Positions 17,792 through 53,554 of a DNA stretch of 64,000 bases are shown piece by piece. The notes under the pieces are model-generated. The model did not search any database. It was not told the origin of the DNA and saw only the letters and a program-made list of their open reading frames with translations. Position 1 is the first letter of the stretch. Each line of letters starts with the position of its first letter. This DNA comes from Burkholderiales bacterium (lineage in GTDB: Bacteria > Pseudomonadota > Gammaproteobacteria > Burkholderiales > SG8-39): contig JAHDYJ010000001.1 of NCBI GenBank assembly GCA_023383795.1, positions 31,266-95,265 of the forward strand. Reading direction: 5' to 3'. The position numbers were made by a program, and so were the translations under genes.

Positions 17792-17793
17792 CC

Positions 17794-22802: not shown

Positions 22803-24731
22803 ATGTGCGGCATCGTGGGCGTGCTCGACGTGCGCGGCAAGCGCGAGATCGCGCGCGAGCTCGTCGAGCGCATGAACGAGATCCAGCACCACCGCGGCCC
22901 CGACGAGGGCGGCTTTCATCTCGAGCCCGGGCTCGGGCTCGGCCACCGACGCCTCTCGATCATCGACCTCGCCACGGGCCAGCAGCCGCTCTACAACGAG
23001 GACGGGACGGTCTGCGTCGTCTTCAACGGCGAGATCTACAACTACCGCGAGCTGATCCCCGAGCTCGTCCGCCTCGGCCACGTCTTCCGCACCCGGAGCG
23101 ACACCGAGGTGATCGTGCACGCCTGGGAGGCCTGGGGCGAGGCGTGCGTCAGGCGCTTCCGCGGCATGTTCGCCTTCGCGCTGTGGGACCGCGACCGCGA
23201 GACGCTCTTCCTCGCGCGCGACCGCCTCGGCGTGAAGCCGCTCTACTACGCCGCGCTCGCCGACGGCACGGTGATCTTCGGCTCGGAGCTGAAGGCGCTC
23301 GCCGCACACCCCGGCCTCGACCGCGCGCTCGACCCGTACGCGATCGAGGAGTACTTCGCCCTCGGCTACGTCCCCGAGCCCCGCACGATCTACCGCGGCG
23401 CGCGCAAGCTCCCGCCCGCGCACACGCTCACCGTCGTGCGCGGCCGCGCGCTCCCCGCACCGCAGGAGTACTGGGACGTCCGCTTCACCGTCGACAACCG
23501 CATCGGCGAGGCCGAGGCGTGCGAGGAGCTGGTTCGCCGGCTGCGCGAGTCGGTGGCGCTCCGCCTGATCTCGGAAGTGCCGCTCGGCGCGTTCCTCTCC
23601 GGCGGCGTCGACTCGAGCGCGGTGGTGGCGATGATGGCCGGACTCTCGACCGAGCCCGTCGAGACCTGCTCGATCGCGTTCGCCGATCCGGCGTTCGACG
23701 AATCCAGGTACGCGCAGGAGGTCGCCGACCGCTACCGCACGCGCCACCACGTCGACCGCGTCGAGAGCGACGACTTCGACCTGATCGACACGCTCGCCGC
23801 CACTTACGACGAGCCGTACGCCGACAGCTCGGCGATCCCCACCTACCGGGTGTGCCAGCTCGCCCGCACCCACGTGACGGTCGCGCTCTCGGGCGACGGC
23901 GGCGACGAGAGCTTCGGCGGCTACCGGCGCTACCGCATGCACGTGGGCGAGGAGCGCATGCGCGCGGCGCTACCGCTTTCGGTCCGGCGCCCGGTCTTCG
24001 GGCTCCTCGGCCGAATGTACCCGAAGGCCGACTGGGCGCCGCGCGTCTTCCGCGCGAAGAGCACCTTCCAGGCGCTCGCCCGCGACTCGGTCGAGGCCTA
24101 CTTCCACGGCGTGTCGATCCTGCGCGACGACATGCGCGCGCAGCTCTTCGGCAACACCTTGAAGGCCGAGCTCGGCGGCTACAACGCGGTGGAAGTCTTC
24201 CACCGCCACGCCGAGCGCGCGAACCGCGACGACCCGCTCGCGCTCGTGCAGTACCTCGACCTGAAGACCTACCTCGTCGGCGACATCAACACCAAGGTGG
24301 ACCGCGCCAGCATGGCGCACTCGCTCGAGGTGCGCGAGCCGCTGATGGATCACCCGCTGGTGGAATGGCTCGCGAGCCTGCCCTCGGCGCTGAAGGTCGC
24401 CGGGGGCGAGGGCAAGTACTGCCTGAAGAAGGCGATGGAGCCGCACCTGCCCGCCGGCATCCTCTACCGGCCGAAGATGGGCTTCGCGGTGCCGCTCGCC
24501 GCGTGGTTCCGCGGCCCCTTGCGCAGCCGCGTGCGCGAGGCCGTGCTCGGTCCGCGGCTGCTCGACACCGGCCTCTGCAACCCGGCCTACCTCCGGCATC
24601 TGCTGGAGGCGCACCAGTCGGGCGTGCGCGACTACAGCGCCCCGCTGTGGACGCTCCTGATGTTCGACGCGTTCCTCGGGCACGAAGCTTCGGCCCGCCC
24701 CGCGCCGGCCACGCTGCGGGCGGCCGGATGA
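22803..24731 (+). CDS. Asparagine synthase (glutamine-hydrolysing)-family amidotransferase, exosortase A system-associated
   Basis: MCGIVG N-terminal nucleophile Cys, HRGPDE, RLSIIDL, NGEIYNY, and the PP-loop GAFLSGGVDSSAVVAMM. Confidence 0.92.
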   Translation: MCGIVGVLDVRGKREIARELVERMNEIQHHRGPDEGGFHLEPGLGLGHRRLSIIDLATGQQPLYNEDGTVCVVFNGEIYNYRELIPELVRLGHVFRTRSDTEVIVHAWEAWGEACVRRFRGMFAFALWDRDRETLFLARDRLGVKPLYYAALADGTVIFGSELKALAAHPGLDRALDPYAIEEYFALGYVPEPRTIYRGARKLPPAHTLTVVRGRALPAPQEYWDVRFTVDNRIGEAEACEELVRRLRESVALRLISEVPLGAFLSGGVDSSAVVAMMAGLSTEPVETCSIAFADPAFDESRYAQEVADRYRTRHHVDRVESDDFDLIDTLAATYDEPYADSSAIPTYRVCQLARTHVTVALSGDGGDESFGGYRRYRMHVGEERMRAALPLSVRRPVFGLLGRMYPKADWAPRVFRAKSTFQALARDSVEAYFHGVSILRDDMRAQLFGNTLKAELGGYNAVEVFHRHAERANRDDPLALVQYLDLKTYLVGDINTKVDRASMAHSLEVREPLMDHPLVEWLASLPSALKVAGGEGKYCLKKAMEPHLPAGILYRPKMGFAVPLAAWFRGPLRSRVREAVLGPRLLDTGLCNPAYLRHLLEAHQSGVRDYSAPLWTLLMFDAFLGHEASARPAPATLRAAG

Positions 24732-25963: not shown

Positions 25964-25992
25964 GCTCGACCGCACCCGTGAGGAACTGAACC

Positions 25993-27918
25993 GTGTGCGG
26001 CATCCACGGCATCTTCGATTTCACCGGCGCGCTGGTCGACACCCGACTCCTCGGCGCGATGGGACGGATCACCGCCCACCGCGGTCCCGACGACGAGGGC
26101 CACCACGCCGACGGCAACTGCGCGATCGGCATGCGGCGCCTGTCGATCATCGACCTCGCGGGCGGCCACCAGCCGATCGGCAGCGCCGACGGAACCCTCT
26201 GGGTCGTGTGCAACGGCGAGATCTACAACTTCCGCGAACTGCGCCGCGAGCTCGAGGCGCAGGGGCATCGCTTCAAGACCGAGTCCGACACCGAAGTGCT
26301 CGTCCACGCGTACGCAGAGCACGGCGAGGGCTTCGTGTCGCGGCTGAACGGGATGTTCGCCTTCGCGCTGTGGGACGCGCGCAAGCGCCGGCTCCTCATC
26401 GGCCGCGACCGCTTGGGCATCAAGCCGCTCTACTACCTGAACGACGGCCGGCGGCTCGCCTTCGCCTCCGAGGCGAAGGCGCTGCTCGAGCTGCCCGGCG
26501 TCAGGCCGGAGGTCGAGCCGGCCGCGCTGCGCGCCTACCTCGAGCTCGGCTACGTGCCCGCGCCGCTCTCGATCTTCCGCGGCATCGCCAAGCTCCCGAT
26601 CGGCTCCCTGATCAGCGTCGCGCGGGACGGTGTCGAGATCCGCGCCTACTGGTCGCCGCCGGTGGAGGTCGACCCCGCACCCTCGGTCGAAGACTGGACG
26701 CGGCGCGTCCGTGCGCGCATGGAAGAGTCGGTGCGCATGCAGATGGTGAGCGACGTGCCGATCGGAGCGTTCCTCTCCGGCGGCATCGACTCGAGCACAG
26801 TGCTCGCGTTCATGGCGCGGCACAGCGGCGCGCCGGTGCGCACGTACTCGATCGGCTTCGACGGCGGCGCCGCCGACCAGTACTACAACGAGCTCCCGTA
26901 CGCGCGCCAGGTGGCCGAGCGGTTCGGCTCCGATCACCACGAGATCCTGGTGCGCCCCGACGTCGTCGGGCTGCTGCCGAAGCTCCTGTGGCACATGGAC
27001 GAGCCGATCGCGGACAGCGCGTTCGTCACCACGTACCTCGTGGCGGAGTTCGCGCGCCGCGAGGTGACCGTGATCCTCTCCGGCGTCGGCGGCGACGAGC
27101 TCTTCGGCGGCTACCGGCGCTACCTCGGCGAGCAGTACATGAAGTACTTCGGGCTGCTGCCCGCCCCGCTGCGGCGCGCGGCCGTCGCGCTCGCCGGACG
27201 GCTCCCGAGCGACCGCCACTCGAAGCTCCTCAACCTCTCGCGCTACGCCAAGCACTTCCTCGGCGCGGCGGAGCTGCCCTTCGAGGAGCGCTACCGCGCG
27301 TACGTGGGGGTGTTCGGCCAGGAAGAGGCGCACGAGCTGCTCGCAGCGGCGTCGGAGCAGCGCGTCGACGCGCTCGGGGCGGCCTTCGCGGCCGCGACGG
27401 GGAGCGACGCGATCGCTCGCATGTTCGCGGTCGACGCCCGCACCCAGCTCCCCGACGACCTGCTGCTCCTCACCGACAAGATGACGATGGCGACCTCGCT
27501 CGAGTGCCGGGTGCCGCTCCTCGACCACGAGCTCGTGGAGCTCGCGGCGCGCATCCCGGGCGGCGTGAAGGTTGCGGGCGGCGAGCTGAAGCACCTCATG
27601 AAGAAGGCGCTCGACGGAGTGCTTCCGCCTGAGATCCTGAACCGCGCGAAGCGCGGCTTCGGCGCGCCGATGGGCGCCTGGCTCAAGTCCGAGCTTCTCG
27701 AGCTGCTCGAGTCCGCGCTCTCGCGCGAGAGCGTCGAGTCGCGCGGGTTCCTGCGCCACGCGCCGATCCGGCGGTTGATCGACGATCATCGCGCGAACCG
27801 CGTCGACGGCACCGATCGCCTGCTCGCGCTGCTCAACTTCGAGATCTGGTGCCGCGTGTACCTCGACGGCCGCGCCTCGCAGGACGTCGCCGGCGAGCTC
27901 AGGGAGGCGGTGGCGTGA
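25993..27918 (+). CDS. Asparagine synthase-family amidotransferase (second canonical copy)
   Basis: GTG start followed by CGIHGIF, HRGPDDEG, RLSIIDL, NGEIYNF, and the PP-loop GAFLSGGIDSSTVLAFM. Confidence 0.92.
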   Translation: MCGIHGIFDFTGALVDTRLLGAMGRITAHRGPDDEGHHADGNCAIGMRRLSIIDLAGGHQPIGSADGTLWVVCNGEIYNFRELRRELEAQGHRFKTESDTEVLVHAYAEHGEGFVSRLNGMFAFALWDARKRRLLIGRDRLGIKPLYYLNDGRRLAFASEAKALLELPGVRPEVEPAALRAYLELGYVPAPLSIFRGIAKLPIGSLISVARDGVEIRAYWSPPVEVDPAPSVEDWTRRVRARMEESVRMQMVSDVPIGAFLSGGIDSSTVLAFMARHSGAPVRTYSIGFDGGAADQYYNELPYARQVAERFGSDHHEILVRPDVVGLLPKLLWHMDEPIADSAFVTTYLVAEFARREVTVILSGVGGDELFGGYRRYLGEQYMKYFGLLPAPLRRAAVALAGRLPSDRHSKLLNLSRYAKHFLGAAELPFEERYRAYVGVFGQEEAHELLAAASEQRVDALGAAFAAATGSDAIARMFAVDARTQLPDDLLLLTDKMTMATSLECRVPLLDHELVELAARIPGGVKVAGGELKHLMKKALDGVLPPEILNRAKRGFGAPMGAWLKSELLELLESALSRESVESRGFLRHAPIRRLIDDHRANRVDGTDRLLALLNFEIWCRVYLDGRASQDVAGELREAVA

Positions 27919-30898: not shown

Positions 30899-32215
30899 AT
30901 GAACATCAGCATCTTCGGCCTCGGATACGTCGGCGCAGTGTCGCTTGCGTGCCTCGCGCGCGACGGTCATCGCGTGGTCGGCGTGGACATCGACCAGGCC
31001 AAGCTCGACCTGATCGCCTCCGGCAAGACGCCGGTGGTCGAGGAAGGCATGGTGGAGCTCATGGCCGAGACGGCCGGGAGCGGGCGGGTCTCGGTCACCC
31101 GCGACGTGACCGAAGCGGTGCACGCGACCGATCTCTCGCTCGTCTGCGTCGGTACGCCCTCGGCGGCGAACGGCAGCCAGGATCAGGGCGCGATCGTCCG
31201 GCTCGCGCACGACATGGGTGCGGCGCTGCGCACCAAGCGCGACGGCCACGTCGTCGTGTTTCGCTCCACCCTCGTCCCGGGGACGGTCGAGGAGACTCTG
31301 CGCCCGATCCTCGAGCGCGAGTCCGGGAAGCGCGACGGCGTGGGCTTCCACGCCTGCTTCCAGCCCGAGTTCCTGCGCGAGGGCTCGTCGATCCGCGACT
31401 ACGACAAACCGCCCTTCACCGTGGTAGGCGCCGCCGCCGAGGCGCCGGTGGCCGCACTGAAGGCGCTCTTCGGGCATCTGCCCTGCGAGTTCCACGCCAC
31501 GTCGATCCGCGCGGCGGAGATGCTCAAGTACTGCTGCAACAACTTCCACGCGCTCAAGATCGCGTTCGCGAACGAGACTGCGCGGCTGTGCGAGGCGCTC
31601 GGCGTCGACCCGTTCGAGGTCATGGAGCTGGTCTGCCGCGACACCCAGCTCAACATCTCGCGAGCCTACCTCAGGCCCGGCTTCGCATTCGGCGGCTCGT
31701 GCCTGCCGAAGGACCTGCGCGCGACGATCTACCTGGCGAAGATGCGCGACGTCGAGCTGCCGATGCTCGGCGGCATCCTGCCTTCCAACCGCACGCACAT
31801 CGAGCGCGCGATCGCAAAGGTGCTCGAGTCCGGGCGCAAGCGAATCGGCATGATCGGGCTCTCGTTCAAGTCGGGCACCGACGACCTGCGCGAAAGCCCG
31901 CTCGTGACGCTGGCCGAGCAACTCATCGGCAAAGGGCTGCAGCTCCTGGTCTACGACCCCGAGGTCCAGCTTTCGCGGCTGCTCGGTGCCAACCGGCGGT
32001 TCATCGAGCAGCACGTGCCGCACATCGGCTCGCTCATGTGCGACGACCTCCAGGACGTGATCGGCGAGTCCGATCTCCTCGTCGTCGGGATGAACGATGC
32101 GCACACCGTCCGGATGCTCAAAGAGCGCGTGCAGGCCAACCAGATCGTGCTCGACCTCGTGAACATCGGGCGCCGCGACGACCTGCGCGGGAGGTACATC
32201 GGGCTGTGCTGGTGA
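30899..32215 (+). CDS. algD: GDP-mannose 6-dehydrogenase (AlgD-like)
   Basis: MNISIFGLGYVGAVSLACLA...VCVGTPS...FQPEFLREGSSIRDY...GFAFGGSCLPKD...GLSFKSGTDDLRESP...GLCW. It is collinear with my recollection of P. aeruginosa AlgD, down to the ..G(I/L)CW terminus. The catalytic Cys motif is present. Confidence 0.88.
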   Translation: MNISIFGLGYVGAVSLACLARDGHRVVGVDIDQAKLDLIASGKTPVVEEGMVELMAETAGSGRVSVTRDVTEAVHATDLSLVCVGTPSAANGSQDQGAIVRLAHDMGAALRTKRDGHVVVFRSTLVPGTVEETLRPILERESGKRDGVGFHACFQPEFLREGSSIRDYDKPPFTVVGAAAEAPVAALKALFGHLPCEFHATSIRAAEMLKYCCNNFHALKIAFANETARLCEALGVDPFEVMELVCRDTQLNISRAYLRPGFAFGGSCLPKDLRATIYLAKMRDVELPMLGGILPSNRTHIERAIAKVLESGRKRIGMIGLSFKSGTDDLRESPLVTLAEQLIGKGLQLLVYDPEVQLSRLLGANRRFIEQHVPHIGSLMCDDLQDVIGESDLLVVGMNDAHTVRMLKERVQANQIVLDLVNIGRRDDLRGRYIGLCW

Positions 32216-33384: not shown

Positions 33385-34740
33385 ATGCCCGGCCCGTACA
33401 CGCGTCTCGTCTCCGGCGTCCTCTTTCCGCTCCACGAGCGGGCCAAGGGCCACGACAGCGCGCGCCGGCTGCGGGCGCTCGAATCGAGCCAGTGGCTGGC
33501 GCCCGATGCGATCCGGGCGCTCCAGGCGCAGCGCCTGCGCGAGTTCCTGGTGGAGATCGGCGCCGAGGTGCCGTACTACGGGCAGCTCTTCGCGCAGGCG
33601 AAGTTCGATCCCGCGTCGGTGCGCACCCGGGCCGATCTCGAGCGGCTGCCGTTCCTGACCAAGCCGCTGATCCGTGCGAACGCCGAGGCGCTCAAGGCAC
33701 GCGATGCCGAACGCCTGAAGCGCTACAACACCGGCGGCTCCTCGGGCGAGCCGCTCGTCTTCTACATCGGCCGCGATCGGGTCAGCCACGACGTGGCGGC
33801 GAAGTGGCGCGCGACCCGCTGGTGGGGCGTGGACATCGGCGATCCCGAGATCGTGGTCTGGGGCAGTCCGATCGAGCTCGGCGCCCAGGATCGGCTGCGC
33901 TCGCTGCGCGACCGGCTGCTTCGCACGCGGCTGCTGCCGGCGTTCGAGATGTCGGAAGCGAACCTCGACGCGTTCGTCGCCGCGATCCGCGCGGCGCGCC
34001 CGGCGATGCTCTTCGGCTATCCCTCGTCGCTCGCGCTCATCGCCCGGCACGCCGAGCGGCGGGCGGTGAGGATGGACGACCTCGGCGTGAAGGTCGCGTT
34101 CGTGACCGCCGAGAAGCTCTACGACGACCAGCGCGAGACGATCGCGCGGGTCTTCGGCTGCCGGATCGCCAACGGCTACGGCGGGCGCGACGCCGGCTTC
34201 GTCGCGCACGAGTGCCCGAGCCGCAACATGCACATCACCGCCGAGGACATCGTCGTCGAGACCGTGCGGCCGGACGGCTCGCGCACGGCCTCGGGCGAGG
34301 CGGGCGAGATCGTCGTGACCCACCTCGCGACCAGGGATTTCCCGTTCGTGCGCTACCGCACGGGGGACATCGGCGTGCTGGACGACCGGCCCTGCCCCTG
34401 CGGGCGAGGTCTGCCGCTCCTCGGCGAGATCCAGGGGCGGACGACGGATTTCGTCGTCGCCGCGGACGGCACCGTGATGCACGGCCTCGCGCTGATCTAC
34501 GTGCTCCGCGACAATCCCGCGATCGAGTCCTTCAAGATCATCCAGGAGAGCATCGACGTGACGCGGGTGCTGCTCGTCCCCGGCAAGGGATATTGCGAAG
34601 ACGTCCGTGGCGCCGTCGAGAAGGGGTTGAAAGCGCGACTCGGCGAGCACGTGAAGATCGTGACCGAGCAGGTGCCGCACATCGCCGCGGAGGGTTCCGG
34701 CAAGTTCCGCTACGTCGTCAGCAACGTCGCGACGCGCTGA
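33385..34740 (+). CDS. Phenylacetate-CoA ligase-family (PaaK/CapK-like) adenylate-forming enzyme
   Basis: 451 aa. LPFLTKPLIR, the AMP-binding loop YNTGGSSGEPLVFY, NGYGGRDAG, YRTGDIG, and a terminal GKFRYV lysine motif. Confidence 0.82.
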   Translation: MPGPYTRLVSGVLFPLHERAKGHDSARRLRALESSQWLAPDAIRALQAQRLREFLVEIGAEVPYYGQLFAQAKFDPASVRTRADLERLPFLTKPLIRANAEALKARDAERLKRYNTGGSSGEPLVFYIGRDRVSHDVAAKWRATRWWGVDIGDPEIVVWGSPIELGAQDRLRSLRDRLLRTRLLPAFEMSEANLDAFVAAIRAARPAMLFGYPSSLALIARHAERRAVRMDDLGVKVAFVTAEKLYDDQRETIARVFGCRIANGYGGRDAGFVAHECPSRNMHITAEDIVVETVRPDGSRTASGEAGEIVVTHLATRDFPFVRYRTGDIGVLDDRPCPCGRGLPLLGEIQGRTTDFVVAADGTVMHGLALIYVLRDNPAIESFKIIQESIDVTRVLLVPGKGYCEDVRGAVEKGLKARLGEHVKIVTEQVPHIAAEGSGKFRYVVSNVATR

Positions 34741-40925: not shown

Positions 40926-40939
40926 GCACTTCGAGTCGC

Positions 40940-42467
40940 CTACGACGGCAACGTATAACGGTCCATCGCCCTCGCCACCGCCCACGGGAAGAGTGCGCTG
41001 CGCAGGCGCGTAGGTCCGTATCCCAGCTCGAGCAGCGAAGGAAGCCGCCACAGTCCTGGCATCCGCTTCATCCACGCGGCCGTTCCTTCCGTCGCGCGGA
41101 TCACGAACCGATCGAGCTCGAGGTTGCGCCACCGGCGGGAGCGCGCCCCGGCGCAGCCAGGCGCCTCGGTTCTCGGCAAGCCAACGAAGGTAGTCCGCCA
41201 GCGCCGCCGGGGTGAGGAAAGCCGGGTCGTCATGCAGCATGACGGATGCGGCGAGCTTGCGCGTGCCGAAGCGCTCACGCGGTACGCCGGCGCTCTCGAC
41301 GATGCGACGGCAGATCGGACGACTGTAGTCCCCCGGCACGTCCCAGGGCGCCATCTCGGCCGAGTGGGTGATCGCGTGCACATCCGCGATCTGACGCACC
41401 CCCCAGAACGCCACCGGGCAATGGAGGAAACCGGTCCAAAGGCGGTACTCGCCAAGCGCACTGCCGGAGGGATCGCCGCGCACGATGTCGGGGCTCAGGT
41501 CGTACGCCTGCTTTGCCCACATCTTGTCGCCGTGGTAGCCCGTGAGCAGAACGCGATCGGCGAGATGTTGCTCCGCGGTCTTGAACCGCACCTCCTCGCC
41601 CATGCCGTTGACGGCCAAAAACGGAACCTCGGGCATCTCGAGCGCGCGCCAACCGTCGAGCGGCACGACGACCGGGCGCAGGCCGAGCACCCGTGCGTTC
41701 TCCGCCCCGCTGTCGATTTCACCGCAGCGCTCGCGCAGCGCGCGCTCGCGGTCGCGTTCGGGCCAGGCGCGATCGAAGCAGAGAACCTCCTCGCAGCCCG
41801 CGTTGCGCGCCAGGGTGGCGACCGTCGAGGAGTCATAGCCCGTCGACAGCGTGCCGAGCATCCGGTAGCGCCGCGCTCTCGATTCCGCGGCGAGATTCTC
41901 CGCAAGCCCGTCGAGGCTCCCCGCGAGGAACGCACGGTACTTGGCGAAGCTGGAGAAATCGCGCAGGGTACGCGGCTTCGGCTCGCGCGATAGCGCCATC
42001 GCGTCCCAGGCGAGATTGTCGAAGTAGACAAGCTCGAGCGGGCCTGCAGAGGTGCGCAGCGTGCGCACGTAGCGCTCGAGTCCGCGCACCACGCTCGACA
42101 GGTCGCGGTAGTAATGCGGGTAGCTCGGATCGAGGCTTGCCCCCGAAGCTGCGAGCACGCAGGGCAGGGAGTTCGAGACCCACGTCGTTTTCGCGTCGTT
42201 CAGGGCATGAAGCCGGTCCACCGTGGAGCCCGCCGAAACGAAGACCACCTTGCCCTCGCGGAACCGCCCCCCGCTCCCCGCTACGAGATCGGTCCGGTCG
42301 AACGCCCCGGCCGCATGGTCGCCGGGCCATGCCACCTCGCCGAACCAGTCGTCCGTGGCCTCGACGTCGCGGCCGTGAAATACCTGCGGGACCAGCGCGC
42401 CGCGTCTGCAAGCCGCGAGCCACGCTAGCGGCGGCCAGTCACGCATCAGCGTGTAGCCGAATCGCAC
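40940..42467 (-). pseudogene. PP-loop / asparagine-synthase-like protein, apparently frameshifted near 41125-41165
   Basis: Frame A (from ATG 42467) is protein-like up to ..ADYLRWLAENRGAWLRRG, with PP-loop-like LGTLSTGYDSSTVATLA. It then runs Arg/Ala/Gly/Val-rich, antisense through the Kelch gene, to 39903. A second frame reads RRWRNLELDRFVIRATEGTAAWMKRMPGLWRLPSLLELGYGPTRLRSALFPWAVARAMDRYTLPS* and stops at 40940, 14 bp from the Kelch stop. Confidence 0.6.
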
Positions 42468-43952
42468 CTATCGGCCTCCGCCAGGGCGCCCAAGAACCCT
42501 GCGGACCTGTCCCAGGAAGAAGCGCTCCGCACCATCGGGGTATCCCGCCACCCGCCAGGCGAGGAGCGATGCGGCGCAGTACGTCACTACCCCCACGAGC
42601 ACTTTTGCGATCAGGACAACGAGTGCGGCGCCACCGAGGTGAGGCACTGCGATTACTGCGACCGCCATCACTGCAGATGCGGCCATCGGACGCCAGAGGC
42701 GAGCTGCCAGACCCCGGGTCGTGACCGCGCTGACGCGAGTGACCGCCGCGAAGACGAAGATCATCAAGACCACCGCCGCAGCAAGTCTGCCGATCGCCAC
42801 GCCCTCCACCCCGTGCGTGCCGACGAGGGGGAGCGCAATCCCGACCAGCAGAACCGCACTGACCCAGGAGCAGGCGGCCGCCACACCCGGTCGCCCAATT
42901 CCAAGGAAGAGACTCACCGACAACGACTGGCCAGTGCTGACGGCGTTACAGAGCGCCAGAAACACGAGCAGGACGGCGGCATCCACCCACTGCGCTCCGA
43001 GAAGCACGGGAACGAGCTCCTGCGCAACGAGCGCAAGGCCAACGGCAGACGGTACTGTTACTGCGGCCACTGTGCCCAGCACGTTGAGATAGGCCGCTGC
43101 GAGGCGACCCGCCTCGTCCTGGATCTTGGCAAAGCCCGGCACGAGCGCCTGGTTGAGCGGTGCGGCGATCTCGCTCCCAGGCAGCCGGGCGATCTCGGCC
43201 GAGATCGTGTACAGCCCCATCTGGCGCGTCGAACCGAGCCCGCCGACGATCACCTCGTCCGCGCGCATCTCGGCGAAGTGGCCGATGCTGCGCACCAGCA
43301 TCCACTGCGAGTAGGACCACAGCTCGCGGATGCGCGCGAGCGAGAAGCGCGGTCGGTAGGGATGCAGCGCGTAGCTCAGCGCGCAGGCCACCGCGTAGCT
43401 CGCGGCCGTGCCGATCACCAGCGCCCAGTAGCTGCGAAGCCATAGGGCCGCGCCGACGGTGACGACGAAGCCGAGCACCTTGCCGGTAACCTGCAGGCGG
43501 AACTCCTTGTGAAACTGGAGCTCCTTCCTGAACGCCACGGTACCGATGTTGGCGAAGCCGCCGACCACGATCGCCGGGCAGAGCACCCAGAGCACCAGTG
43601 TGACACGCGGCTCGTCGAAGTAGTCGGCGGCGAACGGCGCGCCGGCCGCGATGGCAGCGGCGACCACCACGCTCTGGATGATGCGCAGCGTCCACGCGGT
43701 GTCGTAGTGCTCGCGCGTCGCGGCCTGGTTCTGGATCAAGGCCAGGGCCACGCCGAACGAGAGCCACGCCTCCACGAAGGCGACGACGAGCATCGCCATC
43801 GCCACCAGGCCGAAATCGGCCGGCGCGAGAAGCCGCGCAAGGATCACGGTGCTCACGAGCCCGAGCAGGCGCATCGCCCACCGCAGCGCGACGGACCATG
43901 CCGCGCCCTTCAGGACGGCGGTCCGCAGATCGGGCGTCGGGTGCTCGTCCAT
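42468..43952 (-). CDS. Wzx-type polysaccharide flippase (MOP superfamily)
   Basis: 494 aa, about 12-14 hydrophobic helices. N-terminal LKGAAWSVALRWAMRLLGLVSTVILARLLAPADFGLVAM is the typical Polysacc_synt signature. Its stop directly abuts the next start at 42467. Confidence 0.88.
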   Translation of the reverse strand: MDEHPTPDLRTAVLKGAAWSVALRWAMRLLGLVSTVILARLLAPADFGLVAMAMLVVAFVEAWLSFGVALALIQNQAATREHYDTAWTLRIIQSVVVAAAIAAGAPFAADYFDEPRVTLVLWVLCPAIVVGGFANIGTVAFRKELQFHKEFRLQVTGKVLGFVVTVGAALWLRSYWALVIGTAASYAVACALSYALHPYRPRFSLARIRELWSYSQWMLVRSIGHFAEMRADEVIVGGLGSTRQMGLYTISAEIARLPGSEIAAPLNQALVPGFAKIQDEAGRLAAAYLNVLGTVAAVTVPSAVGLALVAQELVPVLLGAQWVDAAVLLVFLALCNAVSTGQSLSVSLFLGIGRPGVAAACSWVSAVLLVGIALPLVGTHGVEGVAIGRLAAAVVLMIFVFAAVTRVSAVTTRGLAARLWRPMAASAVMAVAVIAVPHLGGAALVVLIAKVLVGVVTYCAASLLAWRVAGYPDGAERFFLGQVRRVLGRPGGGR

Positions 43953-43961: not shown

Positions 43962-46316
43962 CTACTTCAGCACCACATCGATCTCGCCGTCTCGCTCGAG
44001 ACCGCCATCGGCCCCGAACTTCAGGCGAACATCGCGCGACTCACGGCGACCACGCGCGACGATGCCGTGGACGCTCGACTCCAGGCGCGAGAGGGCGATC
44101 GCGCGAAGCTCGGTGGGCCGCCCGTCCTCGGTGCGCAGCCACAGCGCGGTGCCCGCGAAGTCGAGATCGAACAGACTGGTAGGCGCGCCGCGCGGCAGCA
44201 CGAGGCAGTCGACGCGATTGCCGCAGATGATCCGGATGCCCACCGCGGCGCCCGTCTGCGTCACCTCGACGGTGGGAACGGCCGCATCGGTGGGGGCCGG
44301 CTTGATCAGCGTTGCGGCAATCATGGGACCACCGGTCGTCTGCATGCGGCAAACAGGCGCCGGAGAACGCTCACCGTAGCGCGGCGACACCCAGCCCGCC
44401 AGCGGCTCGCGCGAGCCTTCGACGAGTTGCAGATCCCCGTGTGCCGCGCTCAAGGCGACGAGCAGCCGCGCATCGCCGGCCCGGGCGAGGATCGCGCGCG
44501 CGTCGTGACGCCCCGCGGTCGCATCCGGAGCGAAATGCAGCGAGAGCCACGCCCGCTCCGCGATCGCGGCCGCGGGGAGCAGATCGTACGCGACCCAGTA
44601 GTGACCGCGAACGTGCACCACGCCTCGCACGTGGCCGCCGTAGGGCGTCTCGCTTTCCACCGTGGCCTCCGCCCAAGAGAGGCCGCCGCCCGTGGCGAGC
44701 GGTCGCATCTCGACTGCGGCCTTCAGCCCGCCCGACGGAAAGTCGCCCGGGCCGCGATCGAGCGGATCGCGGCCTTCGATGTAGAGCGCGTTGTGCGCGG
44801 CCGCTCCCAGGAAGTGCGCGCGCCAGGCGGGCTCGCCTTCGGGCCAGCGCTCCCTCGCCGAGCGGTACGTGAAGGTTCCCGCGTCGACGATAATCGGGTG
44901 GCCGCGGAGCCGCAGATAAACCGACAAGAGGTCGGCGTGCATGTGCCCGGGATTCGAGAGACGGCCGGGAACCGGGCCGGTCCGGAAGGCGAGGCAGCCG
45001 TCGAGATCGGCGTCGGGCAGGACGGCGAAGCCGCCGTCGGGAAACGCGATCGGAGCGTCATCGACGCCGCTCGCGCCGGGGCCGGCGAGCTTGCCCCCGA
45101 GGAGCCACTCTGCTCGCTCGCGCCCCGGCGCATTCGCGCGCGACTCCGCAACGCGCCCGTCGAAGAGCGCACGCAGGATCTCTCGATGCGCGGCTGCGCC
45201 GACGCCGTCGAACTCGTCCAGCGGGAAAAGGTGCGTCTCGACGCAATCGCCGATGGCGAAGGACTTCGCCTCGGGACCGGCGAGCGCCGCCTGGAACCTG
45301 AGCATCGCCTCGAGTCGCGCTTCGACCCACGGCTCGAGCGCGATCCCGTTGCGCCCTGCAAGCAGCACGATCGCGGTGAGCATCTCGCAGACTAGTTCGT
45401 GGTAGTGCACCGAGTGCTCGAAGCTCGTGCCGTCCTCGAACACCTGCCGGCGAAGCTCGCGCCAGAAGAGCGCCTCGCCGTCGAGCCGCCACTGCCCGGC
45501 CTCGCGGAACTCGGGGTAGAGGATGCCGAGGTAGAACATCAGGAATCCGTCGGCGAGCAGGTGGTTGTTCGGCGCTGACGTTCCGAGCCGCGCGTGAACA
45601 AAGCGCGCGTCGGCGAGCAGGATCCTGAAGAGCCCGAGCTCGAGCGCGGGATCGGAGTCGCCTGCGCCGGCGAGGAACGCCAACGTCCACGTCAGCGCGA
45701 CCGACCGGTGCACCGCAATGAGCGGGCTGGAGTAACCTGCCGCTCCGGGCACGCCGTCGGTCGCCCGTGTCCACGATTCGACGAGCTGTCGCAGCACCGG
45801 AACCGCTTGCGCGCCGTACGCTCGGGCGCGCGCGAGCTGCACCGCGGCCAGCAAGTGGTGCGCCTTGTGCTGCGCCACGGTGTCGCGGCCAGGCCCGAGC
45901 GGAAGCCTGTTCCAGTCGGGAAGATCCGGCGCACGCCGCGCCGCATCGCCGTCCGAATAGACGTAGCGCTGCCAGTCGCCGGCCGCCCGCATCGCCTGGG
46001 CGCGGCGGTCGGGCCGCTCGGCCGCGAGCCGCGCCGCCAGCGGCGCGACCTCGGCCTGGTCCAGGAAGAAGCGCGGCGCCGCGCGCTCGCGGAAGTGCGC
46101 GGCGAGCAGGTCCCGCGCATGTGCGGCATCGCCGGATCGCACGGCCTCTCTCACGCCTGCAAGCGCGGGCAGGTCGTCGCGCAGCGCGCCGATCAGCTCG
46201 GCGTCGGAGCAGAGTCGCACCGCGCTCGCCGCGGACGGCTCCGCGAAGCGACGCAATGCCGCCCGGCCGGATCGCGCGGCGCGGCGGATGCGGGTCAGCA
46301 GATCGGTCTTCGCCAT
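43962..46316 (-). CDS. Heparinase II/III-family protein (no signal peptide)
   Basis: 784 aa. NNHLLADGF, EHSVHYHELV and NPGHMHADLLS match the alpha-toroid plus beta-sandwich heparinase II/III / alginate-lyase-like family. The N-terminus MAKTDLLTRIRRAARSG has no signal. Confidence 0.8.
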   Translation of the reverse strand: MAKTDLLTRIRRAARSGRAALRRFAEPSAASAVRLCSDAELIGALRDDLPALAGVREAVRSGDAAHARDLLAAHFRERAAPRFFLDQAEVAPLAARLAAERPDRRAQAMRAAGDWQRYVYSDGDAARRAPDLPDWNRLPLGPGRDTVAQHKAHHLLAAVQLARARAYGAQAVPVLRQLVESWTRATDGVPGAAGYSSPLIAVHRSVALTWTLAFLAGAGDSDPALELGLFRILLADARFVHARLGTSAPNNHLLADGFLMFYLGILYPEFREAGQWRLDGEALFWRELRRQVFEDGTSFEHSVHYHELVCEMLTAIVLLAGRNGIALEPWVEARLEAMLRFQAALAGPEAKSFAIGDCVETHLFPLDEFDGVGAAAHREILRALFDGRVAESRANAPGRERAEWLLGGKLAGPGASGVDDAPIAFPDGGFAVLPDADLDGCLAFRTGPVPGRLSNPGHMHADLLSVYLRLRGHPIIVDAGTFTYRSARERWPEGEPAWRAHFLGAAAHNALYIEGRDPLDRGPGDFPSGGLKAAVEMRPLATGGGLSWAEATVESETPYGGHVRGVVHVRGHYWVAYDLLPAAAIAERAWLSLHFAPDATAGRHDARAILARAGDARLLVALSAAHGDLQLVEGSREPLAGWVSPRYGERSPAPVCRMQTTGGPMIAATLIKPAPTDAAVPTVEVTQTGAAVGIRIICGNRVDCLVLPRGAPTSLFDLDFAGTALWLRTEDGRPTELRAIALSRLESSVHGIVARGRRESRDVRLKFGADGGLERDGEIDVVLK

Positions 46317-48786: not shown

Positions 48787-49767
48787 ATGCCGCAGTCGAT
48801 CGCCGCCGCCCTCGCCCGCGCGCTCGGGAGCGTGCTCTCGCCGGGCGGCGCGCGCGGGCGCCTGTCGATCCTGATCTACCACCGCGTCCTCGCGACCCCC
48901 GACGCCCTCCTCGACGGCACGATCGACGCGGCGAAGTTCGAGGAGCAGATGGCACTGCTTGCGTCGGGCTTCAACGTCCTGCCGCTTCGCGAGGCCGTCG
49001 AGCGTCTCGTCGCGGGGAACCTGCCCGCCCGCGCCGCATGCGTCACGTTCGACGACGGCTATGCGGACAACCACGACGTCGCGCTGCCGATCCTCAAGCG
49101 CCTCGGCGTTCCCGCGACCTTCTTCGTCGCGACCGGCTTCCTCGACGGCGGCCGCATGTGGAACGACACGGTCGTCGAGGCGATCCGACGGGCGACGAAG
49201 CCCGCGCTCGAGCTCGCGGAGATCGGCCTCGGTCCCTTCCCGCTCGGCTCGACCGCCGAGCGCCGCGCGGCGGTGCACGCGCTGCTGCGGGCGATCAAGC
49301 ACCGGCCACCCGCGGAGCGCGCCGCAGCGGTCGAGCGGATCGCGGCGACCATCGGCACCCCCCTCCCCGACGGCCTGATGATGACGAGGGAGAAGGTCCG
49401 GAACCTGCACGCCGCCGGCATGGAGATCGGCGGCCATACGGTCACGCACCCGATCCTCACCCGGATCCCGGACGAGGAAGCCGAGTGCGAGATGGCCGAC
49501 GGCAAGGCGGTGCTGGAGGAAACAATCGGCGGACCGGTGAGACTCTTCGCCTATCCGAACGGCGTTCCCACCAAGGACTTCGCACCGAGACACGTGGCGC
49601 TCGCGAAGCGCGTCGGGTTCTCGGCCGCCGTCACCACGTCCTGGGGCGCGGCGCGGTCCGACTCCGACGTGTTCCAGCTCCCGCGCTTCACGCCTTGGGA
49701 TCGCCAGCCCGCCAGGTTCGGCGCGCGACTGCTCCTCAACGCGCGCCGGCCTGGTATCGAAATCTAG
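48787..49767 (+). CDS. Polysaccharide deacetylase (CE4/NodB homology)
   Basis: ATG 48787. ILIYHRV, VTFDDGYADNHDVALPILKRLGVPATFFV, IGGHTVTHPIL and FAYPNG. Confidence 0.88.
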   Translation: MPQSIAAALARALGSVLSPGGARGRLSILIYHRVLATPDALLDGTIDAAKFEEQMALLASGFNVLPLREAVERLVAGNLPARAACVTFDDGYADNHDVALPILKRLGVPATFFVATGFLDGGRMWNDTVVEAIRRATKPALELAEIGLGPFPLGSTAERRAAVHALLRAIKHRPPAERAAAVERIAATIGTPLPDGLMMTREKVRNLHAAGMEIGGHTVTHPILTRIPDEEAECEMADGKAVLEETIGGPVRLFAYPNGVPTKDFAPRHVALAKRVGFSAAVTTSWGAARSDSDVFQLPRFTPWDRQPARFGARLLLNARRPGIEI

Positions 49768-49801
49768 TAGGTTCTAGAAACGAGATCTCTTCTGCAGTAG
49801 A

Positions 49802-50980
49802 TCATCTCTTCTGGCAATCAATGACCGTCGCATCGCCGATGCAGTCGTAGACGACCGCGCCGGTCGGCGGCTCCTGCAGGAACTCGAACCGCACCCGATC
49901 CGGGGTCGAGATCGTCAGGACCCAGCCGGGTGGCGGCGGCTCCGGAGGATCCGGCGGGTCGCCGAATGCGTGGGTCCAGCACCAGATCTGCGCGCTACGG
50001 ACCCAATCAGTGCCGGCGAGAACCCCCGACCCCGAGCAGAAGCCCGCACCGGGGTCGAAGATCGCCGCGCCTACACGACGTATGCCCGGATAATCCACAA
50101 GGACAGTCCCGGGTGGTTCCGGGATGTGCTCCCATGCCCACGTGCCGATGTGAAGAACGGACACACTGCCGTCCACAGCACCGTGCCCGCCATAGAGGTA
50201 GACAAGATCGTTGATACTGTCGTAAGCCATCTGGCTGAAGTACCGGCCCGACGGTGGATCCTGCGCCGTCACGCTCGTCCAGGCCATCGTCACCGGATCG
50301 AACAGCCACAGGTCATTGAGTATCTTGTAATCGCTGGAGACACCGCCGAAGAGAAGGAATCTGCGCAACGAGGAAATGTACAGAAGCTGTCCCTGCGTGC
50401 GGTTTCGCGCGGGCATCGAGGCGGGCGCATTCACTTCCCTGTACGTACGGTTCCGGAAATCGAGGACGAGTGTCTTGCGCCCCGGATAGCCGGTGTGCGA
50501 CCCCGCAAACACGACGAACAGATCGTGGTCGGGCGACGTCGCCGATCCGGCGCCCCCGGACTTGGTTCGCGCCTCGATCCCGTCGAAATCGGCATTGGTC
50601 AGGATGCGCCACGTCCGCGTGATCATGCTGAAGGCCATCGGATTCGGCCCGATAGTCCGTCCGCCGTCCATCGCGAGGTATTCCTGGTTCACGTGATCCC
50701 AGCCGAAGATCTGCAGGTCGCCGTTCTGCGGGTCGGGCGTCTGCGAGGCGTTCACGTACACCGTCTCCAACGTGTTGGTCCCGGGGTCGTAGCACTGCAG
50801 ACTGCCCCCGTAGCCAAGGGCGCAGTGCCGGCCGTCGACGGTGTTCTGAACCCAGTCGAACCATCCACCACCGGGATTCAGCATGCCGCCGCGGTTGCTC
50901 CACTCGTTGCCCCGCGCGTCGCCTGGAGGCAGCGCCATCAGGACCAGCAGCGTCGAGAACACGAACGTCGAGCGCTTCAT
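49802..50980 (-). CDS. Secreted Kelch-repeat beta-propeller protein; function unknown
   Basis: Signal peptide MKRSTFVFSTLLVLMALPPGDA and SD GGAGGAG. Kelch strands RFLLFGGVSSDYKILNDLWLFDPVTMAWTSV and LVYLYGGHG. A Pro-rich linker DPPDPPEPPPPG is followed by a small 2-Cys tail. GC is about 52-57% in hand-counted rows. Confidence 0.82.
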   Translation of the reverse strand: MKRSTFVFSTLLVLMALPPGDARGNEWSNRGGMLNPGGGWFDWVQNTVDGRHCALGYGGSLQCYDPGTNTLETVYVNASQTPDPQNGDLQIFGWDHVNQEYLAMDGGRTIGPNPMAFSMITRTWRILTNADFDGIEARTKSGGAGSATSPDHDLFVVFAGSHTGYPGRKTLVLDFRNRTYREVNAPASMPARNRTQGQLLYISSLRRFLLFGGVSSDYKILNDLWLFDPVTMAWTSVTAQDPPSGRYFSQMAYDSINDLVYLYGGHGAVDGSVSVLHIGTWAWEHIPEPPGTVLVDYPGIRRVGAAIFDPGAGFCSGSGVLAGTDWVRSAQIWCWTHAFGDPPDPPEPPPPGWVLTISTPDRVRFEFLQEPPTGAVVYDCIGDATVIDCQKR

Positions 50981-51578: not shown

Positions 51579-51580
51579 TT

Positions 51581-51657
51581 GTGATTCCCGCGGAAGCGGG
51601 AGGCCAGCTCGTGCGCGAATCAACGATCCACTGGATCTCCGCTTTCGCGGGGATGAC
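51581..51657. repeat. Two REP-like palindromes
   Basis: 51581-51605 GTGATTCCCGCGGAAGCGGGAGGCC and 51631-51657 CTGGATCTCCGCTTTCGCGGGGATGAC. The second lies inside the last ~13 codons of the convergent amidotransferase gene. Confidence 0.7.
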
Positions 51658-53554
51658 TGGCGCGGAGACCCTCTAACGCAGAGGGCGGGCTCGCGGCGGC
51701 CCGGGCGTTTCGCTGCTGGTGCCACTGCTCGAGCATCATCAGCACCCACACCATGACGCCGTAGTAAGAAGCGTGGTGCTCGAGGTGCGAAGACATGAGC
51801 TCGTCGATGAACTCCGGGCGAACGATGTGGCGCCGCCTGAGGTCACCCAGGCTGTCCATGGCAAGCTCGCGCAGCGGCGCGTGACTCGCGAGCCACGGGC
51901 CGACCGGCAGCCCGAAGCCGTGCTTGGTCTTCGCGAGGATCTCGCGCGGGAGAAAGTCCGCGAGCGCCCGCTTGAAGAAGTAGCGCAGACGCGTGCCCTT
52001 GAGCTTGAGACGCGGCCCGAGATGCGCCGAGAACTCCACCACGCGCTCGTCCAGCATGGGGAACGCTGACTCCACGCCGGCGAGGTCGCACATCCGCGTG
52101 ACCTTGGGGAGATCGTTGTCGGCCAGCGTGTACTTCAGGTCGAGCGCGAGCTGGCGGTTGATGAGCGATCGCGCAGCGGTCCGCTCGTACGTTTCGGCGA
52201 GCTGGCGCAGCGGCGCGCCCGGATCGACGGCGGCGAGGAAGTCCTCGCGAAAGACGCTCGCCGGGCCGAGATGCTCGAGCAGGTTGTAGTGCTCGAGCCG
52301 CGCGGGCATCGGCTTTGACGCGAGGCGAATGTACGCCCGCGCCTTGCGCACGCCGGGGAGCGCGCCTGCGCCGGGCGTCATGAAGGCGAGCGGCTCGACG
52401 AGCCCCGCGCGCAGCCATCCGGGCAGCCGGCCGTAGAACGAGAGGAGATGCTGGGTCGCGTAGCGCGCGTTGCCGCCGAAGAGCTCGTCGCCGCCGTCGC
52501 CGCCGAGCAGGCAGGCGACGCCCTCGGCGGCCGCGAGCCGCGCACAGTAGTAGGTGGGCACCGCCGAGGCGTTGCCGAAGGGTTGGTCGTACGCGCGCGC
52601 GATCATCGGTATCGCGGCGACCACATCGTCGGGGGTGACGTAGTACTCGAACTGCCGCGTACCGAAGTGCTTGGCCGCGATCCGCGCGTAGGCCATCTCA
52701 TCGTAGCCGGCGGCGTCGAAGCCGATCGAGAACGTCTTCGCGGGCTCCCCGCGCACGGCGCCGAGCAACCCGGCGACGGTCGAGCTGTCGGTGCCGCCGC
52801 TCAGGAACGCGCCGACCGCGCCGGCGGCCGCGGCGCCGGCGACGCTCTCGCGCAGGCACAGGACGAATCGCTCCTTGAGCGCGCCGAAAGGCGCCGTCTC
52901 GTCCTCGACGTAGCGCATCTGCCAGTAGTGACCGACTTGGACGTCGCCGGCCTTGAACAGGGCGTACGTTCCGGGCGTCAGGCGCGAGACGCCGCGGATC
53001 ACCGAGCGCGGGGCCGGGATCATGTGGAAGTACGCGTAGTCGTAGATCGCCTGAGGGTCGATATCGAACGGGATCCCCGGGTGCGAGACGACAGCATCGA
53101 CGCGCGAACCGAAGGCCACGAGCCCGCCCGACGGCGCGGCGTAGGCCATCGGGCACGTTCCGGTGCGATCGACGGCGAGCAGCACCTCGCCTTTCGCCTC
53201 GTCGATCAGCGCCAGCGCGAAAGCGCCCTGGAGCCTCGCGAGCGCGTCGACGCCGTGCTTCTTGTAGGCCGCAAGGAAGCTGCGCGGGAAGCCCGCCCAG
53301 GCCGCCTCCGCAGCAAGGGCGGCATCGGCCCAGCGCGGCCGGCCGACGATGCCGCACACGCGACCCTTTTCCGCCGCCTCGGCGATGCTCACCGCTCCGT
53401 CACGCCCGGAGGCGGCGATGCCGCCGCCTTTCACGCGCTGCGATCGCTGCATCTCGCCGGGGCCGACTGCGAGGGCGTCGCACATCCGAGCCAGGACATC
53501 TGCAGCTTCCGGCGGCGCGGGGCCCGGCGCGAAGAAACCGCACAGGCCGCTCAC
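51620..53554 (-). CDS. Asparagine synthase-family amidotransferase (third canonical PP-loop copy; offset N-terminal Cys)
   Basis: GTG 53554 gives MSGLCGFF. PP-loop GAFLSGGTDSSTVAGLL, LLGGDGGDELFGG, and a C-terminal KHGFGLPVGPWL. The C-terminal ..ASHPRESGDPVDR is encoded by a REP element. Confidence 0.88.
   Translation of the reverse strand: MSGLCGFFAPGPAPPEAADVLARMCDALAVGPGEMQRSQRVKGGGIAASGRDGAVSIAEAAEKGRVCGIVGRPRWADAALAAEAAWAGFPRSFLAAYKKHGVDALARLQGAFALALIDEAKGEVLLAVDRTGTCPMAYAAPSGGLVAFGSRVDAVVSHPGIPFDIDPQAIYDYAYFHMIPAPRSVIRGVSRLTPGTYALFKAGDVQVGHYWQMRYVEDETAPFGALKERFVLCLRESVAGAAAAGAVGAFLSGGTDSSTVAGLLGAVRGEPAKTFSIGFDAAGYDEMAYARIAAKHFGTRQFEYYVTPDDVVAAIPMIARAYDQPFGNASAVPTYYCARLAAAEGVACLLGGDGGDELFGGNARYATQHLLSFYGRLPGWLRAGLVEPLAFMTPGAGALPGVRKARAYIRLASKPMPARLEHYNLLEHLGPASVFREDFLAAVDPGAPLRQLAETYERTAARSLINRQLALDLKYTLADNDLPKVTRMCDLAGVESAFPMLDERVVEFSAHLGPRLKLKGTRLRYFFKRALADFLPREILAKTKHGFGLPVGPWLASHAPLRELAMDSLGDLRRRHIVRPEFIDELMSSHLEHHASYYGVMVWVLMMLEQWHQQRNARAAASPPSALEGLRASHPRESGDPVDR

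Follow-up and report, generated by a model that had tools for sequence, protein, structure and literature searches.

Five putative, separately conserved asparagine synthetase-fold families in one XrtA/PEP-CTERM exopolysaccharide locus of a Burkholderiales bacterium

The window analysed here, a stretch of 64,000 nucleotides from a Burkholderiales bacterium (GenBank assembly GCA_023383795.1, contig JAHDYJ010000001.1, positions 31,266 to 95,265 of the forward strand), is spanned by one unbroken exosortase A (XrtA)/PEP-CTERM exopolysaccharide cluster, as recognised by NCBIfam and Pfam scans. Within this cluster lie five open reading frames (ORFs) of the asparagine synthetase B (AsnB) superfamily, referred to as A to E, each predicted to combine an N-terminal nucleophile-type domain with a PP-loop ATP-pyrophosphatase domain. 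Judged from their sequences and those of their relatives, the five proteins belong to five independently conserved families that appear to have been assembled as modules and not duplicated and decayed in place; the sole real damage among them is a single extra G in D, which may be a sequencing error. The explanation that is favoured, and that we hold to be rather probable, is that of a five-family modular locus in which A and B would carry out the glutamine-dependent amidation of uronates, and E, C and D would activate carboxylates by adenylation for coupling to other nitrogen nucleophiles. The new elements are the fold-level annotation of the C and D families, neither of which has a database model, the conserved gene cassette around C and the frameshift in D.

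What, then, distinguishes the five proteins? Gene calls in the window (about 70% GC) are based on third-position GC and a codon-usage log-odds model, and the window holds exactly five PP-loop/AsnB-fold ORFs, with no sixth recovered when all six-frame ORFs were scanned with three family hidden Markov models and the pattern S[GAST]GxDS. The PP-loop motifs are FLSGGVDSS in A (22803-24731, forward strand), FLSGGIDSS in B (25993-27918, forward), FLSGGTDSS in E (51620-53554, reverse), LSAGNDS in C (34757-36580, forward) and LSTGYDSS in D (40940-42467, reverse), such that the SGGxDS signature is exact in A, B and E and is represented in C (SAGNDS) and D (STGYDS) by variants of the form S-x-G-x-D-S. 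The Pfam Asn_synthase model (PF00733), which pairs with PF13537 in class-II glutamine amidotransferases of the AsnB type, is matched above its gathering score at 339 bits by A, at 336 bits by B and at 266 bits by E; Pfam gives no match at all to C or D, D has none in NCBIfam either, and both families are recognised only by profile or structure comparison. The XrtA/PEP-CTERM amidotransferase model TIGR03108 (cutoff 816.9 bits) scores A at 1078, B at 551, E at 314 and C at 15 bits with no match to D, and A is thus the only member among the five. Against the asn_synth_AEB model (cutoff 267) A and B reach 493 and 502 bits, with a weak match of C at an E-value of 8e-6. An initial annotation of this DNA had listed the five ORFs with these coordinates and motifs, all of which are present, and had observed that C and D lack the Cys nucleophile, which their MTIVFG and MRFGYT starts bear out. 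It had placed E among the copies that keep the PP-loop, and this is true of the loop (SGGTDSS), but the glutaminase residues of E are gone and its Cys is at position 5 and not 2. Similarly, the motif and location given for D stand, but the interval spans 1528 nt, a length not divisible by three, with one extra G near 41129.

The ability to draw nitrogen from glutamine is written in the N-terminal domain, and here A and B stand apart. The N-termini read MCGI in A, CGI preceded by a Val start read as Met in B, MSGLCG in E, MTIVFG in C and MRFGYT in D, so that a Cys directly follows the initiator Met in A and B, lies at position 5 in E and is absent from the N-terminus of C and D. The glutamine-site residues (HRGPD, R-LSI-D, N-G-E and SD-EV) are complete in A and B and missing in E and C, in both of which the N-G-E of NGEIYN has become (V/W)-G-R and the remaining glutaminase motifs are missing. 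The N-domain of D cannot be aligned by sequence with hhalign, and a complete glutamine site is thus not found in three of the five. A is a TIGR03108 WbpS-type enzyme, and A and B retain every glutaminase and synthetase motif. For A this comprises a full N-terminal nucleophile (Ntn) glutaminase domain with a GATase_7 match (MCGI, HRGPD, RRLSIID, NGEIYN and SDTEV) and the PP-loop SGGVDS; for B, a second complete glutamine-hydrolysing AsnB-family amidotransferase that shares 42% identity with A from end to end and falls outside TIGR03108, the same glutaminase motifs are all present (M-C-G-I, HRGPD, RRLSIID, NGEIYN and SDTEV). A lies two genes downstream of xrtA with a single GT4-family glycosyltransferase gene between, and its stop overlaps the start of a downstream GT4 gene (ATGA); B overlaps the downstream glycosyltransferase gene stp1 (GTGA) and has an orthologue at the equivalent position in a related locus (L018). 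Four-base start/stop overlaps of this kind (ATGA or GTGA) occur at 24728-24731, 27915-27918, 36577-36580 and 53551-53554, and join A to its GT4 gene, B to its GT4 gene, C to a methyltransferase gene and a GNAT gene to E.

Are A and B perhaps genuine asparagine synthetases, which provision the cell with Asn for the synthesis of Asn-rich exported PEP-CTERM proteins? Both exceed the asn_synth_AEB equivalog cutoff, and the composition of the exported proteins is in keeping with such a role, for the PEP-CTERM protein of the window (2721-3746) contains 6.2% Asn and the XDP1 exosortase-dependent surface protein (6201-7058, reverse strand) 8.4%, compared with 1.6% in A; the high Asn content of PEP-CTERM proteins has also been remarked upon in the Aquincola paper (PMC9850573). 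However, the best and above-cutoff match of A is to TIGR03108, tested members of which make uronamides and not Asn (PMC7468200), both A and B show translational coupling to glycosyltransferase genes, and asparagine supply is silent on C, D and E. We consider this explanation quite unlikely.

E is an asparagine-synthase-related protein that keeps the synthetase site (SGGTDSS and GGDGGDELFGG), not the glutamine site. Its N-terminal domain has been remodelled, with GATase_7 covering only amino acids 94-155, (V/W)GRPR in place of NGEIYN, and no HRGPD, RLSIID or SDTEV motif; E is therefore not counted as an intact glutamine-dependent enzyme. The remodelled form is nonetheless that of a populous family, with more than 7,700 matches and with genes widespread in XrtA loci. 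In the family alignment G3 and G6 are invariant, C5 is kept in at least 90% of sequences and the MSGLCG N-terminus is common to 27 members. Cys5 would need propeptide cleavage if it were to act as an N-terminal nucleophile. The best sequence match of E in the PDB is TsnB9 (7ylz), at an E-value of 5e-21. An upstream start that would place the Cys at position 2 was considered and rejected, as there is no start codon in the ORF before the GTG at 53554, the residue that precedes the Cys is a Leu encoded by CTG, and the 27 homologues all start with MSGLCG. This GTG overlaps the stop of the upstream gene (GTGA), which encodes an Acetyltransf_6 protein, a FemAB-like GNAT (53551-54717, reverse strand; PF13480, 77.5 bits), that is translationally coupled to E.

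C, in contrast to the widespread E, represents a rare family, with 35 clusters at 90% identity that are nearly all from Burkholderiales-type metagenome bins and with just six loci, all in metagenome-assembled genomes, in a scan of 185,579 species-representative genomes. It is Cys-less and has the PP-loop S-A-G-N-D-S-R, within which S246, G248, D250, S251 and R252 are invariant in the family. The C and E family profiles align over nearly their whole length with an hhalign probability of 97% and an E-value of 5e-11, and the C-family profile finds TsnB9 (7ylz) in the PDB at an E-value of 3e-6. An AlphaFold2 (AF2) model of C, with a predicted local distance difference test score (pLDDT) of 88, returns TsnB9 in Foldseek with template modelling (TM) scores of 0.69-0.72 and after it only CarA, beta-lactam synthetase, Escherichia coli AsnB and human ASNS. 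The two-domain AsnB fold of C and D is thereby predicted from AF2 models together with Foldseek searches, in which the significant matches all belong to the AsnB superfamily; that of A, B and E is deduced from sequence.

The setting of C is highly constant. Immediately upstream lies the gene for a CapK/PaaK-like adenylate-forming enzyme (33385-34740, forward strand; NCBIfam DVU_1553-family and PaaK matches), and downstream are those for a SAM (S-adenosylmethionine)-dependent methyltransferase (36577-37305, forward; NCBIfam methyltransferase matches), which is translationally coupled to C through an ATGA overlap with its stop, and, last in the cassette, an (alpha/alpha)6-barrel protein of the GH127, C5-epimerase-C or LanC-like type (37343-38533, forward; GH127_cat at 40 bits, C5-epim_C and SQHop_cyclase_C). 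The order CapK/PaaK-like protein, C, methyltransferase and barrel protein is found in four of four loci (the window, L005, L018 and L019), the neighbour of C in the latter three being a CapK_C gene. The CapK-like protein and the methyltransferase also match the NCBIfam DVU_1553 and DVU_1556 family models weakly.

These neighbours bring into consideration a peptide-directed chemistry, in which the Cys-less copies, and especially C, would modify the carboxylate of a peptide or PEP-CTERM protein, either in the manner of a lasso cyclase or by an amidation of the TsrC/PesC type. A CapK-like protein, a methyltransferase and a LanC-like barrel are suggestive company, the region 37508-38533 gives weak LanKC and LanM matches, A, B and E partially match the lasso cyclase model, and asparagine synthetase-like (AS-like) enzymes are known that amidate or nitrilate peptide C-termini (PMC13060819). 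The lasso-cyclase scores, though, are far below the NF033535 cutoff of 525 bits (A 254, B 236 and E 116 bits, with none for C or D), no lasso genes are seen in the locus, and neither a precursor peptide gene nor a leader peptidase is seen in the C cassette. The barrel protein scores higher on the glycoside-active GH127 and C5-epimerase families, and in every locus examined the cassette lies among glycosyltransferases, a Wzx flippase and a dehydrogenase. These ATP-dependent enzymes would be expected to work in the cytoplasm, whereas exosortase processing is proposed to come only after the inner membrane has been crossed (PMC7468200). A peptide substrate is therefore a very improbable one.

D is a Cys-less protein with the PP-loop S-T-G-Y-D-S, resembles beta-lactam synthetase (BLS) and CarA in its predicted AsnB fold, and belongs to a large unannotated family. 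Clustering at 90% identity yields at least 888 clusters for the family, and at 50% identity there are 2,286 representatives, 1,303 of them matched at E-values of 1e-30 or below; the representatives at 50% identity are mostly full length, at about 500 amino acids, and the range of the family takes in Proteobacteria, Acidobacteria, Rokubacteria and Nitrosococcus. D was modelled through a 99%-identical intact homologue of 508 amino acids (P0036), with an AF2 pLDDT of 90, and the only significant Foldseek matches of this model are beta-lactam synthetase (1jgt, E-value 2.5e-11), CarA, TsnB9, AsnB and ASNS, at E-values from 2.5e-11 to 1e-6. S208, G210, Y211, D212 and S213 are invariant in the family, as are many residues of the N-terminal domain, and the latter speak against drift and in favour of a function, for example in substrate binding.

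The copy of D in the window carries a frameshift. Over the 1528 nt of the interval the third-position GC changes frame near 41100, and the last 62 residues of P0036 are encoded here in the other frame, with the stop at 40940. An intact D of 1527 nt lies between the same neighbours in four metagenome contigs (L001-L004), and comparison with these identifies a single extra G (GGTG-G-CGC) at about 41129 as the only uncompensated indel over the 4.6-7.7 kb aligned per contig: positions 41125-41135 of the window read GGTGGCGC, versus GGTGCGC in the four near-identical contigs. Downstream of the frameshift, three of three differences are synonymous in the repaired frame, and another assembly contains a differently frameshifted copy of D (P0043). 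As judged from these alignments, the lesion may be very recent or a sequencing error, and the D of this window would accordingly be either inactive or mis-sequenced. The same alignments reveal that D differs from the four contigs at 16 of 1527 positions and is thus about 99% identical at the nucleotide level, versus about 94% in the flanks, which suggests either an unusually strong constraint on D or its recent exchange. An 854-amino-acid ORF (39903-42467, reverse strand) was rejected as a gene; it represents D reading past the frameshift through the antisense of a Kelch gene in DNA of 70% GC. This Kelch gene (38565-40925, forward strand; Pfam Kelch_6 and Kelch_1) encodes a Kelch-repeat protein of 786 amino acids, is convergent with D and is the same neighbour in L001-L003. 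It sits between the C cassette and D, and is missing from L005, in which the barrel gene is followed directly by D in the same orientation.

How do these five proteins relate to one another? In pairwise BLAST comparisons A and B are 42% identical, A and B share 32-33% identity with E, C weakly matches A and B, and D matches no other copy; recent tandem duplication was rejected, the pairwise identities being too low. The initial annotation had described a decay series with degenerate loops in C and D. What is found instead is five separately conserved families, with the variant loops invariant within their families, and this invariance of S-x-G-x-D-S in the C and D families indicates purifying selection, not decay. 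Each of these two families also keeps a conserved G-D motif at the position of AsnB SGEGSDE, and C and D retain only the two-domain fold, the family-invariant S-x-G-x-D-S and this G-D motif. Both Cys-less copies align with AsnB, C through hhalign and its fold and D through its predicted structure; a complete failure to do so would, by the initial annotation's own reckoning, have refuted its hypothesis.

The modules also come and go independently. D is present in L005 and not in L018 or L019, and B is present in L018 and not in L005 or L019, and with modules that vary independently among loci the window carries the union of separable parts. Genes of the D family stand beside a Wzx/Polysacc_synt flippase gene in L005 and in L007 (Nitrosococcus oceani), and close to one in the exosortase locus L009.

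It could still be, much as the initial annotation had allowed for the Cys-less copies, that C, D and E are catalytically dead relics, kept as scaffolds or as non-catalytic partners of A and B. C and D are without the Cys nucleophile and have non-canonical PP-loops, E is without the glutamine-binding residues, and D is frameshifted not only in the window but, differently, in the second assembly (P0043). Against this, all three families are conserved and hold numerous invariant positions, among them S-x-G-x-D-S and the G-D motif further downstream, the 2,286 representatives of the D family are mostly full length, D often occurs with no canonical AsnB gene alongside (L007 and L008), and the differences past the frameshift of D are synonymous in the repaired frame. 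Moreover, BLS, CarA and TsnB9, as Cys-less relatives, are catalytically active. We therefore regard the pseudo-enzyme explanation as unlikely, and it, asparagine supply and peptide-directed chemistry each fit the data less well than the modular locus of amide-forming enzymes.

In the mechanism that is proposed for this modular locus, A and B would release ammonia from glutamine by hydrolysis and pass it through a channel to the synthetase site, where the C6 carboxylate of a hexuronic acid would be adenylated and converted to a primary amide; the substrate would be either a nucleotide sugar or an undecaprenyl-diphosphate-linked repeat unit. E, C and D would be unable to make ammonia from glutamine, and would combine ATP-driven carboxylate adenylation with nitrogen coupling in the way that beta-lactam synthetase, CarA, TsnB9 and the lasso cyclases do, the candidate nucleophiles being ammonia in its free form, amino acids, amino alcohols and an amine carried by the same sugar. 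Their reactions would take place at the cytoplasmic face and precede the flipping of the unit by Wzx, with C working inside its fixed four-gene cassette and D serving as a mobile accessory gene that is usually found beside a flippase. The uronate context of this scheme is supported by the presence of an NDP (nucleoside diphosphate)-sugar dehydrogenase and a heparinase II/III-like gene in the locus.

A number of observations weigh against this reading. The sequence-profile link of D to AsnB is marginal (hhalign probability 21%), and a profile search of the PDB with the D family gave as its sole match the PP-loop of GMP synthase at an E-value of 0.7, such that sequence alone cannot place D. The link to AsnB comes instead from a predicted structure, with Foldseek TM scores of only 0.45-0.51, D is frameshifted in the window, and in one case (L008) a member of the D family is found away from any polysaccharide context. 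In hhalign alignments C (GFLGDAL) and D (TGYHGDK) each place an aromatic residue (F/Y) opposite the first acidic residue of GGDGGDE in E, that is, where AsnB has its catalytic Glu (SGEGSDE), in an alignment that is of low confidence, particularly for D. Finally, the near-invariant Cys5 of E is not accounted for by the favoured explanation. A more specific proposal, that the D family and the less common C family represent hitherto unrecognised amide ligases of the AsnB fold, without glutaminase and dedicated to surface polysaccharides, which attach amines or amino acids to uronates or close lactams on the lipid-linked unit just before the Wzx step, is put forward as a tentative suggestion that we think more doubtful than likely. 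Were it true, C- and D-type ligases in XrtA systems could create an amine or amide handle for the coupling of PEP-CTERM proteins by the exosortase.

The wider locus is that of an XrtA system, as the initial annotation had recognised when it spoke of an exosortase-A polysaccharide locus with a nucleotide-sugar dehydrogenase. NCBIfam XrtA-system models are exceeded for the export protein, chain-length determinant, kinase, outer-membrane protein, ATPase, deacetylase, FemAB protein and XrtA, and also for three glycosyltransferases, PrsT and the O-ligase; the XrtA-EpsI protein (19961-21520; TIGR03109, 345 bits) is accompanied in the window by 12 other XrtA-system families. In the NCBIfam and Pfam scans, PrsT (7230-10034) follows the PEP-CTERM and XDP1 genes given above, and then come the export protein, chain-length determinant, tyrosine kinase, TIGR03016 outer-membrane protein and ATPase (10487-16628). 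The core XrtA block (16625-21520, forward strand) encodes a WecB epimerase, the XrtA-system deacetylase, a FemAB-family protein and the exosortase A-EpsI fusion, with TIGR00236, TIGR03006, TIGR03019 and TIGR03109 each above cutoff. The three XrtA-system GT4 families present are stp2, stp3 and stp1. The likely source of the uronic acid is an NDP-sugar 6-dehydrogenase (30899-32215, forward; TIGR03026, 363 bits), which the initial annotation had called AlgD-like; this is not specifically so, as the enzyme is of the generic NDP-sugar type and its nearest specific matches are UDP-glucose 6-dehydrogenases. Directly upstream of D and on the same strand is a Wzx-type MOP flippase (42468-43952, reverse; NF007773, 186 bits), and beyond it a heparinase II/III-like protein (43962-46220, reverse; Hepar_II_III_C 87 bits and Hepar_II_III_N 69 bits in Pfam), the enzymes of which family have uronate polymers as substrates. 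An exosortase-A-associated O-ligase-like protein is encoded at 54790-56133. An Rfam scan of the window returned no RNA families.

Several further features of the cluster may be recorded. Three FemAB/Acetyltransf_6-type GNAT paralogues are present (18880-19938; 53551-54717, reverse strand; 60424-61485, reverse), a trio that parallels VimA of the Wbp/Vim linking-sugar pathway of the secretion system known as type IX (T9SS), and of these the middle one is that coupled translationally to E. There are two polysaccharide deacetylases, one of the XrtA-system TIGR03006 type (17794-18654) and one generic, Polysacc_deac_1-like member of CE4 (48787-49767), and two Kelch-repeat beta-propeller proteins, the one beside D (38565-40925) and another at 49802-50980 on the reverse strand. 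At the left edge (338-2319) a gene for a ThiF/E1-like adenylyltransferase is followed by one for a flavin mononucleotide (FMN) oxidoreductase-like protein of the Acg/Rv3131 type, and the models PRK14851 and PRK07877 span both halves as a single fused protein. The right end (61531-63505, reverse) holds genes for an APH-family phosphotransferase-like protein and for a class I methyltransferase, adjoined by a DegT-type aminotransferase gene (58453-59664), and the set may represent further sugar-tailoring genes.

Uronic acids decorated with amides, whether as uronamides or as amino-acid or amino-alcohol amides, are common in bacterial surface glycans, and to our knowledge most of the enzymes that make them await identification, just as the target to which exosortase attaches PEP-CTERM proteins has, as far as we know, yet to be settled. 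The locus offers a compact test bed for chemistry of this kind, as it combines a single WbpS-type enzyme and a further glutamine-dependent paralogue with three AsnB-fold enzymes that lack a glutaminase, in the company of three FemAB-like GNATs and two deacetylases. It also provides a fold-level annotation for two families that are without a family model, one of which is large. The multiplicity of AsnB-type genes in XrtA clusters has already been published, and the value of the present analysis therefore lies in annotation and hypothesis and not in a new mechanism.

With regard to systems of the same kind, two asparagine synthetase genes are reported for the Zoogloea and Aquincola floc clusters in the background section of PMC9012009, and three wbpS-like asparagine synthase genes for the syntenic cluster of Rubrivivax, Thauera and Rhodoferax in the gene table of PMC3684757. 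The statement in the initial annotation that one such gene is expected and five are striking was thus overstated. In the parts of these sources that describe them, the clusters are all of the same XrtA kind, with two to three annotated asparagine synthase genes and flanking wzx. The psc1 cluster of Rubrivivax gelatinosus, Thauera MZ1T and Rhodoferax, of about 75 kb, has a left-side order as tabulated (ThiF-like, PrsT, export, FemAB and CapK) that matches the window, and the Rubrivivax cluster likewise lists a UBA/THIF-type gene at its edge, as at 338-2319 here (PMC3684757). The copies listed are the Pfam-recognisable ones, with no equivalent of C or D in the gene table of PMC3684757 or the background of PMC9012009.

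The Cys-less members find their closest known counterparts outside polysaccharide synthesis. Beta-lactam synthetase (1jgt) and CarA (1q15) head the structural matches of D and rank high among those of C, and they share with the two the two-domain AsnB fold, a non-glutaminase N-domain and the lack of a Cys nucleophile, and their own chemistry is ATP-dependent amide formation with a non-ammonia nitrogen. Enzymes of the beta-lactam and carbapenam synthetase type reportedly contain a catalytic Tyr-Glu dyad together with a Lys, as Raber et al. are said to have described in 2009. They differ from the proteins here in that identity is only 12-16%, the TM scores of D are low, and clavam- or carbapenem-type (beta-lactam) gene context is absent, the neighbours in the window being glycosyltransferases, Wzx, the dehydrogenase and exosortase-system genes. 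TsnB9 (7ylz), a hydroxyamidotransferase that we take to belong to trichostatin biosynthesis, is the best match of C by both profile and fold, although its alignment with C is confined to the PP-loop region and the latter half of the N-domain, at about 15% identity, and C is without an N-terminal Cys. Activity in the absence of this Cys is well precedented, as AS-like enzymes without it, among them beta-lactam synthetases, lasso cyclases and the amidases or nitrile synthetases of peptide C-termini, catalyse adenylation and amide formation, with lactam formation and amide ligation as outcomes (PMC6594144, PMC13060819).

For A the comparison is closer. A literature search for uronamide-forming AS-like enzymes yielded ASNS papers only. 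The TIGR03108 family, eps_aminotran_1, includes WbpS, WbqG and PGN_1234, and experimental support exists for the conversion of uronic acids to uronamides by WbqG and by PGN_1234 of Porphyromonas gingivalis (PMC7468200). The uronate carboxyl amidation that had been envisaged in the initial annotation is thus the experimentally backed role of A's own family (PMC7468200). A resembles these enzymes in its score above the family cutoff, its Cys2, its full set of glutamine-site motifs and its SGGxDS loop, whereas B, E, C and D are not members of the family. The linking sugar of the T9SS Wbp/Vim pathway is an N-aminoacyl uronamide, the only worked example of such an anchor, and an amino-acid-modified sugar has been suggested as the exosortase acceptor (PMC7468200). 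VimA is similar to the XrtA FemAB family, and VimE belongs to the CE4-family deacetylases, a type whose genes neighbour those of FemAB in exosortase loci (PMC7468200); the deacetylase and FemAB genes of the present locus parallel VimE and VimA, respectively.

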